From Dictyostelium discoideum (lineage: Eukaryota), in assembly GCA_000004695.1 (NCBI GenBank), contig CM000151.3:6592001-6656000 (forward strand): a DNA stretch of 64,000 nt, read 5' to 3'. The notes below the pieces were generated by a model that made no database searches, was not told the origin of the DNA, and saw nothing but the letters and a program-made list of their open reading frames with translations. Below are positions 48,387 to 55,224 of this stretch, one piece after another; the stretch's first letter is position 1; every line of letters starts with the position of its first letter. Made by a program: the position numbers and the translations under genes.

Positions 48387-48459
48387 GCCCGTTTAGCAAA
48401 GTTGGAATTGCGGCAGCCTTCTAAGCTGCAGGTCGTGGGATCGAGACCCACAATGGGTG
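48387..48459 (+). tRNA. tRNA-Arg (anticodon UCU)-like gene, copy 1
   Basis: 73-nt cloverleaf: acceptor GCCCGTT/AATGGGT, D arm GCAA-AGTTGGAA-TTGC, anticodon arm GCAGC-CTTCTAA-GCTGC (U33, anticodon TCT, A37), variable loop AGGTC, T arm GTGGG-ATCGAGA-CCCAC. The T-loop is atypical (A54, G59) and the G1-U72 pair is a wobble. An identical inverted copy lies at 55152..55224. Confidence 0.55.
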
Positions 48460-48484
48460 ATATTTTTAACTGGGAAATTTATAG

Positions 48485-48506
48485 ATCGCAGGTTCAATGT
48501 CTGATA
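48485..48506 (+). promoter_or_regulatory. external B box (exB) about 30 nt downstream of tRNA-Arg copy 1
   Basis: GATCGCAGGTTCAATGTCTGAT contains the B-box-like GGTTCAAT. The corresponding sequence (GATCGTAGGTTCGATGTCTGAT) is conserved at the same offset downstream of the inverted tRNA-Arg copy. Dictyostelium tRNA genes characteristically carry such an exB. Confidence 0.5.
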
Positions 48507-48514
48507 TGAAGATA
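48504..48514. repeat. target-site duplication ATATGAAGATA, left copy
   Basis: The same 11-mer recurs at 53861..53871, immediately after the terminal poly(A) of the retroelement. Joining the two flanks reconstructs an uninterrupted empty site. Confidence 0.55.
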
Positions 48515-48649
48515 CACGTGAAAAGTAATTCATCCTTTTCTATCCTTAATCTCGGTCAATTTTAACCAATCTTTCAAAAAAAATCACCAATCCACCACGA
48601 TCTACAGATCTAACTTACCAAATCGCCGATTCAAAGGAATCCCATCGAG

Positions 48650-49903
48650 ATGAATTCCTACGCAGACGCGGCTAAAATGGCCAACCCCTCCACCCATATG
48701 GACGAGGCATCAGAGAACTTCATTAAGGAATTCTCCACAAAAACAGCAGAGATAAAGGAGACCTACCCCAAATTATCAATAGGCCTCAAAGACATCTCCA
48801 AATACTGCGAGACCATATTGAACATGACTGCTCTCTCAACCTACGAGAAAAACAACGGATTCTACCCAATTACACTCGAATTCCCCAAAATGGATCTCAT
48901 GGGGTTAGAAGAAATGAGAAAAACACTCTCAAACTACGATATCCCAATCGACAAGATATACATAGGCAAAGGAACTAGAAAAACGATCCACCTGATGATT
49001 AAAAACGAACAATCTCTCCTAAATATCATTAGAGATAGAAGCAAATTGGGAACCTTCATCACCTCCAGTAGAGACTACCACGTCCTCACAGGAAGAGTAA
49101 GAATTCCAAGAGAAAAGGCAGGAATAGTGGACGCCCTCATCAAAACTGCCTTTGCAGAAGAAATACCCTATGCAATATACCATACTATATACTCCACCGA
49201 CCACCTCCTAGTATTCGGTCTAATAGAATGCAAAATAGGCGATCAAATGAAATCTGGCCAACACAATACAGAAATCGCCAACTTTACCATCAGAACGGCC
49301 ACCAAAACCTACTCCTCACAAAAGAAAAATAAGAAAGTAGAGTCAAACAACACGGAAGAACCATTAGAAGATGAGATGACAGATGATCCTCCCAACATCC
49401 AAAACAGGATAGCAATCAAATCCTCTCAACCAAAACCACAACAACAAACATACAACCCAGCAAACAATAAGTCTGATAAACAATCAACCCAAGAGAAAAA
49501 AGCCCAATCAAAAAAGTCCTCTCAACCTCTTCCCCCCAAAAACCAAGCAGAATCTCAATCTGTCAAACCCACCACAACCACTACCACAACATCCAACGCC
49601 ATCCAAAAAGACAATGCCAACAAAACGAGCACTAACATCCATTCATCCTCGGAAAACAGAGAGAAGACACCAAACATCCCTCCATCACATAAACGCAAGA
49701 ACGAGGAAATCCACTCAAACAACGAGGTCACCCAACTCTCACCAACAATAAACAGAAGCAACCCTTACATCCCATCCACCCCTAAGACACCTGTCAAAAA
49801 AGAAAGGAAAGGAATCATTGAGAGCTTCATAGAGAGTATCTACCCTTCACCATCCAAACCGCAGCTATACGACTCCCAAGAGGAGATCGATATCATCTCA
49901 TAA
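48650..49903 (+). CDS. retrotransposon ORF1 protein (417 aa, basic/Ser-Thr-rich C-terminal half)
   Basis: ATG-initiated ORF inside the element. It ends TAA, overlapping the ORF2 ATG by one nt. Confidence 0.7.
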   Translation: MNSYADAAKMANPSTHMDEASENFIKEFSTKTAEIKETYPKLSIGLKDISKYCETILNMTALSTYEKNNGFYPITLEFPKMDLMGLEEMRKTLSNYDIPIDKIYIGKGTRKTIHLMIKNEQSLLNIIRDRSKLGTFITSSRDYHVLTGRVRIPREKAGIVDALIKTAFAEEIPYAIYHTIYSTDHLLVFGLIECKIGDQMKSGQHNTEIANFTIRTATKTYSSQKKNKKVESNNTEEPLEDEMTDDPPNIQNRIAIKSSQPKPQQQTYNPANNKSDKQSTQEKKAQSKKSSQPLPPKNQAESQSVKPTTTTTTTSNAIQKDNANKTSTNIHSSSENREKTPNIPPSHKRKNEEIHSNNEVTQLSPTINRSNPYIPSTPKTPVKKERKGIIESFIESIYPSPSKPQLYDSQEEIDIIS

Positions 49904-54461: not shown

Positions 54462-54490
54462 TTATCAGTAAATCTTACTGGGGAAAACAT

Positions 54491-54573
54491 TGCAAGAGGC
54501 GAGATTCGAACTCGCGAACCGAATGGATGAGATCTTAAGTCACACGGATTTAACCAGACTTTCCTACCCTTGC
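54491..54573 (-). tRNA. class II tRNA (83 nt, long variable arm), probably tRNA-Leu (anticodon UAA)
   Basis: The reverse complement is GCAAGGGTAGGAAAGTCTGGTTAAATCCGTGTGACTTAAGATCTCATCCATTCGGTTCGCGAGTTCGAATCTCGCCTCTTGCA. It has a perfect T arm GCGAG-TTCGAAT-CTCGC, an A-box-like TAGGAAAGTCTGG, a 7-bp acceptor pairing, and anticodon loop CTTAAGA (TAA, G37). The anticodon stem has one mismatch and the variable-arm pairing is weak, so the isotype is tentative. Confidence 0.55.
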
Positions 54574-55106
54574 TTTGGATGGAAATTTTATTTTATTGGT
54601 TTTTAAACCTGGCACCATCATCCCATAGAAAAACTAAAAACTCTCATCCATAAATCATAATTGAGAAGCAATTGTGTATAAAATACATTTTTGATAGATC
54701 TATAAAAAAGAAAAGATCAGATTCCAAAAAAAGATTGTTTCACCAAATTATTTTCTATGGTTTGCTAGGCATTTTCAAAACAAAAATAATATTTTTTTAA
54801 TTTTTTTTTTTTAGGTCATTTTTTCCCAGTTATTTATTAATGTTTGGGTTATTACTCTTTCTTTTAAAATAATTTAATGTTTGCCATCAAATCTATCAAA
54901 AATATAATTTAAAAATTTCTTTTTTAAATTGGACTATGTGGTTTCAATTTTTTCACTGATATTACTTTCATATGCATTATTTTATAATGGTCGTAGAAAT
55001 ATTTCATTGTTTAAAATTTATATGTAAAAAAAGAGAATATATTGGAATATCCAAAATCACTTGGAATACTAGACCCAATTATGTGATGATGTTTTTGAAT
55101 GAATGA

Positions 55107-55128
55107 TCAGACATCGAACCTACGATCA
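55107..55128 (-). promoter_or_regulatory. external B box downstream of tRNA-Arg copy 2
   Basis: The reverse complement GATCGTAGGTTCGATGTCTGAT is conserved with the exB of copy 1, at the same spacing. Confidence 0.5.
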
Positions 55129-55151
55129 ATATTTTCTTTGGCATAAAGATT

Positions 55152-55224
55152 CACCCATTGTGGGTCTCGATCCCACGACCTGCAGCTTAGAAGGCTGCCG
55201 CAATTCCAACTTTGCTAAACGGGC
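55152..55224 (-). tRNA. tRNA-Arg (anticodon UCU)-like gene, copy 2, inverted relative to copy 1
   Basis: It is the exact reverse complement of 48387..48459 over all 73 nt. The flanks diverge immediately outside the tRNA + exB unit. Confidence 0.55.

Follow-up and report, generated by a model that had tools for sequence, protein, structure and literature searches.

A defective TRE3-type non-LTR retrotransposon downstream of a tRNA-Arg(UCU) gene in Dictyostelium discoideum, most probably of the TRE3-A subfamily

The stretch of DNA described here, a 64-kb window from Dictyostelium discoideum, contains a small cluster of tRNA genes and, within it, a non-LTR (long terminal repeat) retrotransposon of 5.35 kb, located at 48515–53860 on the plus strand (all positions are those of the window). 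In our assessment, there is little doubt that tRNA-Arg(UCU) copy 1 of this D. discoideum cluster was hit by a TRE3 element, most probably by a member of the TRE3-A subfamily. Targeting of D. discoideum tRNA genes by TRE3 has been described since the 1990s; the former name of Dd_TRE3-A is Tdd-3. A preliminary description of the region, made from the sequence alone, had also proposed a TRE3-type element in a tRNA gene cluster, and the positions it gave proved to be correct throughout.

Exactly three tRNA genes were identified in the window by ARAGORN, and all of them were confirmed by Rfam (RF00005) at 49–59 bits. These are tRNA-Arg(UCU) copy 1 (48387–48459, plus strand; 59.2 bits), which is the targeted gene, tRNA-Leu(UAA) (54491–54573, minus strand), and tRNA-Arg(UCU) copy 2 (55152–55224, minus strand). 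This is the set recognized previously, namely two identical, inverted tRNA-Arg genes and one tRNA-Leu gene. Copies 1 and 2 are identical in 73 of 73 nucleotides and lie within an 88-nt inverted repeat of 99% identity, which includes 14 nt of the upstream flank. A T5 terminator of RNA polymerase III (Pol III) follows tRNA-Arg copy 1 at 48463–48467.

Each tRNA gene was also said to possess a downstream external B box (exB). In Dictyostelium, the exB is a same-strand B-box-like motif, GGTTCRANNCC, located some tens of nucleotides behind the tRNA. A motif of this kind, with the 8-mer GGTTCRAT, indeed begins exactly 32 nt beyond the 3′ ends of all three tRNAs, always on the strand of the respective gene. 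The corresponding exBs are GGTTCAATGTC for tRNA-Arg copy 1 (48491–48501, plus strand), GGTTCGATTCT for tRNA-Leu (54449–54459, minus strand), and GGTTCGATGTC for tRNA-Arg copy 2 (55110–55120, minus strand). The 8-mer is not enriched window-wide (six occurrences versus 4.0 expected). The exBs are taken as real not on the basis of motif counts but because the same position and strand recur three times and the motif is also kept in another strain, ACTFIR. Within the inverted duplication of the tRNA-Arg gene (48373–48501 and 55110–55238), a 24-nt non-homologous stretch is followed by a common exB block, GATCGYAGGTTCRATGTCTGAT. The orthologous place in D. firmibasis (locus L005) contains one tRNA-Arg gene only, with a weaker exB-like sequence, GGGATCGACTC.

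The GC content of the element is 0.373, as compared to 0.217 in the rest of the window. Its first base, 48515, is located 55 nt past the 3′ end of tRNA-Arg copy 1 (48459), in agreement with the distance given earlier, and the direct repeat that precedes it begins 44 nt past this end. The element and tRNA-Arg copy 1 are co-oriented, both being on the plus strand. According to the literature, TRE3 elements reside 40–150 bp downstream of tRNA genes, with which they are co-oriented, and carry ORF2 (open reading frame 2) in the −1 frame (PMC5911963), and a range of 14–228 bp downstream was reported for TRE3-A (PMC5006619, Table 1). For the TRE3 group as a whole, the downstream range is roughly 14–300 bp. 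Thus, both the distance and the orientation are those of TRE3.

Alignment to a canonical copy of 5229 nt placed the 5′ untranslated region (UTR) of the element, without canonical nt 1–29, at 48515–48649. It is followed by ORF1 (48650–49903), which is open, codes for 417 aa, and contains no Pfam domain. The ORF1 products of related copies are 416–417 aa long, and an exact look-up of the ORF1 protein returned no record. The ORF2 frame (49903–53493) is shifted by −1 relative to ORF1, with the stop and start codons overlapping in TAATG. It includes an APE domain (~49927–50661), a reverse transcriptase (RT) domain (~51472–52215), and a CCHC motif of the form CPLC...H....C (52978–53037). The 3′ UTR with a first poly(A) tail (A30, 53596–53625) occupies 53494–53625, and all these features are located on the plus strand. 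Two ORFs, a −1 ORF2 with APE, RT, and a zinc finger in this order, and a poly(A) tail make up the architecture of TRE3, with ORF2 being interrupted in this copy.

The Pfam search with ORF2 yielded RVT_1 at 1e-33 and a weak, sub-threshold match to Exo_endo_phos, which nevertheless spanned the entire profile. Among solved structures, the best match was human LINE-1 ORF2p (8sxt), well ahead of R2; residues 312–820 of ORF2 are collinear with it (E 1.8e-50). The N-terminal 266 aa, compared with solved structures as a single sequence, produced noise only, and the match came with a profile: 270 N-terminal residues aligned with homologues matched the L1 endonuclease 1vyb at E 2.5e-48. The window copy retains all of the endonuclease residues N10, E43, Y109, D149, N151, D221, D252, and H253. 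ORF2 therefore combines an N-terminal APE domain with its catalytic residues and an RT most similar to that of L1 ORF2p, as is characteristic of the L1 clade. The earlier view of a GC-richer element of ~5.3 kb with ORF1, APE, and RT is thus borne out, as is the similarity of ORF2 to L1-clade RTs on which its family assignment was made to depend. TRE3 and human LINE-1 both have an APE-type endonuclease ahead of the RT, a Cys-rich motif at the C-terminus, and an mRNA with two ORFs and poly(A); they also share target-primed reverse transcription, truncation at the 5′ end, and 5′-junction microhomology. In contrast, L1 picks TTTT/AA sites genome-wide, while TRE3 picks a position beside Pol III genes, and the ORF1 proteins are unrelated.

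From Met175 to the stop codon, ORF2 is identical in 1021 of 1021 residues to the product of gene model DDB_G0276387 (XP_643172.1) of D. discoideum AX4, and the window was assigned to D. discoideum for this reason. Other D. discoideum proteins retrieved with ORF2 displayed 94–98% identity. The locus is 99.8% identical in assembly GCA_054883475.1, with its structure unchanged.

The survey of relatives covered eight other copies: two in tandem at locus L001 and one each at L010 and L011 in D. discoideum, and four at L006–L009 in D. citrinum. They are 93–99% identical to the window copy at the nucleotide level and homologous to it along the whole length. An upstream tRNA gene could be scored in six loci with upstream DNA; the tandem pair at L001 has no upstream tRNA within the stretch examined. 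In all six, a tRNA gene on the same strand (Ser, Leu, Arg, Lys, Asp, and Thr) was found 56–123 nt upstream of the target duplication. The six copies have duplications of 8–17 bp, which differ in sequence between copies, and poly(A) tails. These positions agree with the published ranges for TRE3 (PMC5911963) and TRE3-A (PMC5006619). The TRE3-type identity proposed earlier is therefore supported by homology to eight other copies, six of them downstream of co-oriented tRNA genes, and by the match to DDB_G0276387.

Several of the surveyed loci deserve a brief description. The four full-length copies in D. citrinum (L006–L009) are located at different tRNA genes and encode an identical ORF2 product of 1059 aa, which suggests recent activity of the TRE3 family in this species. 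The copies of the tandem pair (L001, 1–9310) are separated by 80 bp; the downstream one is flanked by a duplication of its own, ATAATGCATAA, and its canonical 5′ end is preceded by an A12 leader. Both ORF2 frames of this pair, of 1234 codons each, are intact, and the annotated start is an internal Met. L010 represents a full-length D. discoideum copy. The copy at L011 (2831–6880) has a 1176-bp internal deletion (canonical nt 1205–2380), which fuses the ORF1 and ORF2 regions. Its duplication, ACTTGCTGCT, is clean, comprises 10 bp, and lies 88 nt downstream of a tRNA-Thr gene.

The canonical full-length sequence extends from (GATCTC)AAAAAACCGTACCGCGATCAAGAGGATACAAGATA, followed by CACGTG..., to ...AATCCAATATT(A)n. 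An additional occurrence of AATCCAATATT at 26249–26259 is a chance match within unrelated sequence. Intact relatives measure 5221–5223 nt from CCGTACC to AATATT and 5229 nt with an A6 leader. The published consensus lengths are 5229 for Dd_TRE3-A, 5279 for TRE3-B, 4734 for TRE3-C, and a partial 1559 for TRE3-D (PMC5006619). The last three subfamilies share the targeting behaviour and overall architecture, but their lengths do not fit the intact relatives. TRE3-A also appears to be represented by the most abundant TRE3-like family in our data: the protein cluster formed at 90% identity has 79 members versus 14 in the other TRE3-like cluster of AX4, with clusters mixing strains and species. The database names of cluster members are all ‘hypothetical protein’. 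ORF2 of the second cluster is only 34% identical to that of the window copy. Judged from the length of intact relatives and from abundance, the subfamily is likely TRE3-A, with which the window copy also shares its place downstream of a co-oriented tRNA gene, the two ORFs with a −1 ORF2 and the APE–RT–zinc finger order, the poly(A) tail, and a target duplication of the variable kind.

Some features set the window copy apart from Dd_TRE3-A. Its alignment to the canonical sequence begins with canonical nt 30 at 48509, so that the first 29 nt are absent. Codon 122 of ORF2 is a TGA nonsense codon (50266–50268), where intact copies have TCA (Ser). In addition, 114 bp (38 codons) are absent, in frame, after ...NWHHT at ~53125/53126; because this segment exists in intact copies, in D. 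purpureum, and in other relatives, its absence is regarded as a deletion. The copy is non-autonomous through the nonsense codon and the 114-bp deletion. A further difference is an extra unit of 232 bp at the 3′ end, consisting of a 5′-UTR-like spacer and a repeated 3′ end with a second poly(A). The TGA codon, the deletion, the 5′ truncation, the duplicated 3′ end, and a TRE3-like remnant beside the element (see below) had not been mentioned in the preliminary description.

The element is bounded by the direct repeat ATATGAAGATA at 48504–48514 and 53861–53871 (plus strand), which occurs in 64 kb exactly twice, at these two places, versus 0.14 occurrences expected. As seen from the right repeat, ATATGAAGATA is the target sequence before insertion. 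The last six nucleotides of the left copy, AAGATA, coincide with canonical element nt 30–35 and may originate from either the target or the element. The repeat described earlier as an intact 11-bp target-site duplication is thus real, but six of its nucleotides overlap with element-derived microhomology, and the unambiguous duplication comprises 5–11 bp. Since 6 of the 11 repeat bases may be derived from the element, the staggered cut is given as 5–11 bp. Microhomology at the 5′ junction is typical of 5′-truncated L1-type insertions.

An allele without the element, which the preliminary description had suggested looking for in other strains, was present in GCA_054859385.1 (locus L004). This D. 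discoideum strain, which is ~8% diverged in this intergenic DNA, has the same three tRNA genes and the exB, and lacks the element. Its empty site contains GTCTGATATGAACATT once, with a single ATATGAAcATt. BLAST homology between the window and this allele stops at 48513 and resumes only at 54442, at the exB of tRNA-Leu. In the place of the 570 bp that follow the element in the window (53872–54441), which consist of the TRE3 remnant and AT-rich DNA, the other strain has 4.6 kb with two genes for NAD-dependent epimerase/dehydratase (L004 3655–8280, minus strand). The difference could stem from a deletion in the AX4 lineage, tied to the older insertion, or from sequence gained by the other strain.

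It might be argued that the 11-mer is a chance match, that the element is no simple insertion, or that it should be assigned to TRE5 or to an untargeted family resembling L1. Element sequence could account for six of the 11 repeat bases, and short repeats are likelier in AT-rich DNA. The repeat, however, is confined to the two flanks at the low expectation given above, with element-sized homology to eight copies between them; the element and the eight other copies have matching ends; and homology to the empty-site allele ends at exactly this point. The element also lies 3′ of the tRNA gene and is co-oriented with it. Dd_TRE5-A belongs to the same superfamily, but integrates upstream of tRNA genes, at a distance of ~50 bp and oppositely oriented (PMC5911963). 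The identity of ORF2 to the other abundant D. discoideum family among the matches, presumed to be TRE5-A, is only ~33%. We therefore regard any of these explanations as highly improbable.

The insertion itself can be pictured from the biology of the L1 clade. The ORF2 endonuclease would have nicked the bottom strand between 48503 and 48504, i.e., 2 nt past the exB of tRNA-Arg copy 1, and poly(A) RNA would have been reverse-transcribed from this nick. A cut of the top strand would have followed 5–11 nt further downstream, and the cDNA was presumably joined 29 nt short of the RNA 5′ end via the 6-nt AAGATA microhomology. The literature on TRE elements suggests that the site would be set by its position relative to a tRNA gene bound by Pol III factors, not by the target sequence, with recognition possibly mediated by the Pol III transcription factors that occupy the B box or exB. 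Such recognition was shown experimentally only for TRE5-A (PMC5006619, PMC5911963). In seven copies, a small sample, the distance from exB to insertion ranged from 2 to ~80 nt, and there was no consensus at the nick site. The variable distance and the lack of a nick consensus fit position-based over sequence-based targeting. The later history of the copy would include the ORF2 nonsense codon and the 114-bp deletion; the element may have landed beside an older TRE3-like fragment or at its edge.

Several points weigh against the interpretation given above. The assignment to TRE3-A is indirect, as it relies on the length of relatives and on abundance. At the 5′ junction, no more than 5 of the 11 repeat bases can be assigned to the target without ambiguity. 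The right flank is not collinear with the empty-site strain, where a sensitive BLASTN search with the 570 bp gave low-complexity noise only, and the empty site therefore directly validates the left junction alone. Finally, no fixed exB spacing is evident, and a role of the exB or TFIIIC in TRE3 targeting is putative.

The remnant mentioned above was revealed by blastx and tblastn at 53868–54140 (plus strand) and represents a decayed fragment of the C-terminus of a different, older TRE3-like ORF2, with stops. Its translation shares 48% aa identity with residues 932–999 of the intact protein (WIWICNQLYSDD versus WIWICNQIYSED), and its nucleotide sequence is 71% identical to 53123–53249. A recognizable 3′ end or poly(A) was not found in this fragment, and no further TRE sequence besides it and the element was found in the 64-kb window. 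The fragment may originate from the TRE3-B, -C, or -D subfamily. Comparison of the strains suggests that host DNA ends at ...ATATGAA and that the older fragment begins near this point, in which case the element hit the margin of an insertion already present at this tRNA gene. Tandems resulting from sequential TRE hits are documented (PMC5006619, Table S2 note), and one is also seen at L001. The result would be a tandem pile-up of the kind common at the tRNA genes of Dictyostelium.

The 3′ end of the element is composite. Positions 53458–53625 and 53690–53857 are 100% identical over 168 nt, so that the last 168 nt of the element, including the end of ORF2 and the 3′ UTR, are exactly repeated at 53690–53860 (plus strand). 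Both modules terminate in poly(A) tails, which comprise 30 and 33 nt, respectively. A 64-nt spacer between them (53626–53689, plus strand) resembles the canonical TRE3 5′ end (GATCAA..GGATAC.AGATACA..GAAAA...). Its local alignment score is 20, as compared to 10.0 ± 1.65 for shuffled sequences, with a maximum of 16 in 500 shuffles. This arrangement of spacer and repeat was found in none of the eight other copies. An order of events with a short unit inserted first and a full-length element second was rejected, since it predicts a third target repeat between the units and none is present.

The single pair of repeats enclosing both units, with no third copy between them, can be explained by one event with a template switch. 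That non-LTR reverse transcriptases can jump between templates end to end is established. The RT would have copied a short TRE3 RNA composed of a 5′ and a 3′ part and then jumped from the 5′ end of this RNA to the poly(A) tail of a near-full-length TRE3 RNA; one pair of target duplications would therefore flank both pieces. This is our tentative preference, although it falls short of being probable. The significant similarity of the spacer to the canonical 5′ end and the complete identity of the two 168-nt modules speak for it, and two poly(A)-terminated units within one duplication occur likewise at L009 in D. citrinum. The spacer, however, has only ~70% similarity to the family 5′ end, next to a 3′ module with complete identity, an odd combination for one short RNA, and the ~150 kb of related loci available contained no separate copy of the short unit.

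At L009 (4794–5058; GCA_054859145.1), one duplication, ACAAATGAT, encloses a unit of ~250 nt and, after it, a TRE3 of full length. The first 17 nt of the short unit are those of the canonical sequence (TCTCAAAAAACCGTACC); the unit ends in a TRE3-like 3′ end with A24 and contains A-box-like (TGGTGGAGTGG) and B-box-like (GGTTCGAGTCT) motifs. It had no match in Rfam. This unit may be a passenger resembling a short interspersed nuclear element (SINE) or a chimeric retrocopy.

The observed sequence is also compatible with a second, independent insertion. L1-type endonucleases favour T/A-rich sites, and the terminal 232-bp unit could be a short, internally deleted TRE3 derivative, which entered the A-rich tail of the first element and whose all-A duplication is hidden in the poly(A). 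TRE tandems produced by sequential hits, as referred to above (PMC5006619, Table S2 note; L001), offer a precedent. But the tail would then have been 5.4 kb from tRNA-Arg copy 1, far beyond the range of TRE3; a hit targeted to one of the closer genes, tRNA-Leu or tRNA-Arg copy 2, would be inverted, as both are on the opposite strand; and tandems elsewhere have flanking DNA between the units and a separate duplication for each. On balance, two independent insertions appear rather unlikely.

Still more doubtful is an origin from a progenitor that already had the composite 3′ end and was retrotransposed as one unit. This possibility would be analogous to TRE5-A, whose 5′-UTR B-module is duplicated in the 3′ UTR (PMC5006619, PMC5911963) in a manner that recalls the spacer in the window, and it would account for the single duplication pair around the whole structure. 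None of the eight other copies has such a 3′ end, however, and a transcript would normally be expected to end at the internal A30 tract. We consider it improbable.

Taken as a whole, the element and the site are both of already known kinds, the copy is already an AX4 gene model, and this TRE3 copy is now dead, being defective, and otherwise ordinary. The region adds little beyond annotation and leaves the picture of the TRE mechanism unchanged. The preliminary description considered the copy useful for studies of targeting. The copy is defective, and it is a less clean example of targeting than supposed because of the composite 3′ end and the neighbouring older fragment. Its modest value comes from the absence of the insertion from one divergent strain, with a defined empty site, from the exB lying only 2 nt away, an unusually short distance that argues against a fixed exB spacing, from the microhomology at the 5′ junction, and from the composite 3′ end, which may record template switching.

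It is conceivable, though we hold it to be rather doubtful, that the composite 3′ end is a fossil of a template switch in which the RT used a short TRE3-derived RNA and a full-length TRE3 RNA, with L009 as a second example. If true, such fossils would show how TRE elements gain modular UTRs, comparable to the B and C modules of TRE5-A, and would also show the origin of short non-autonomous TRE3 passengers.

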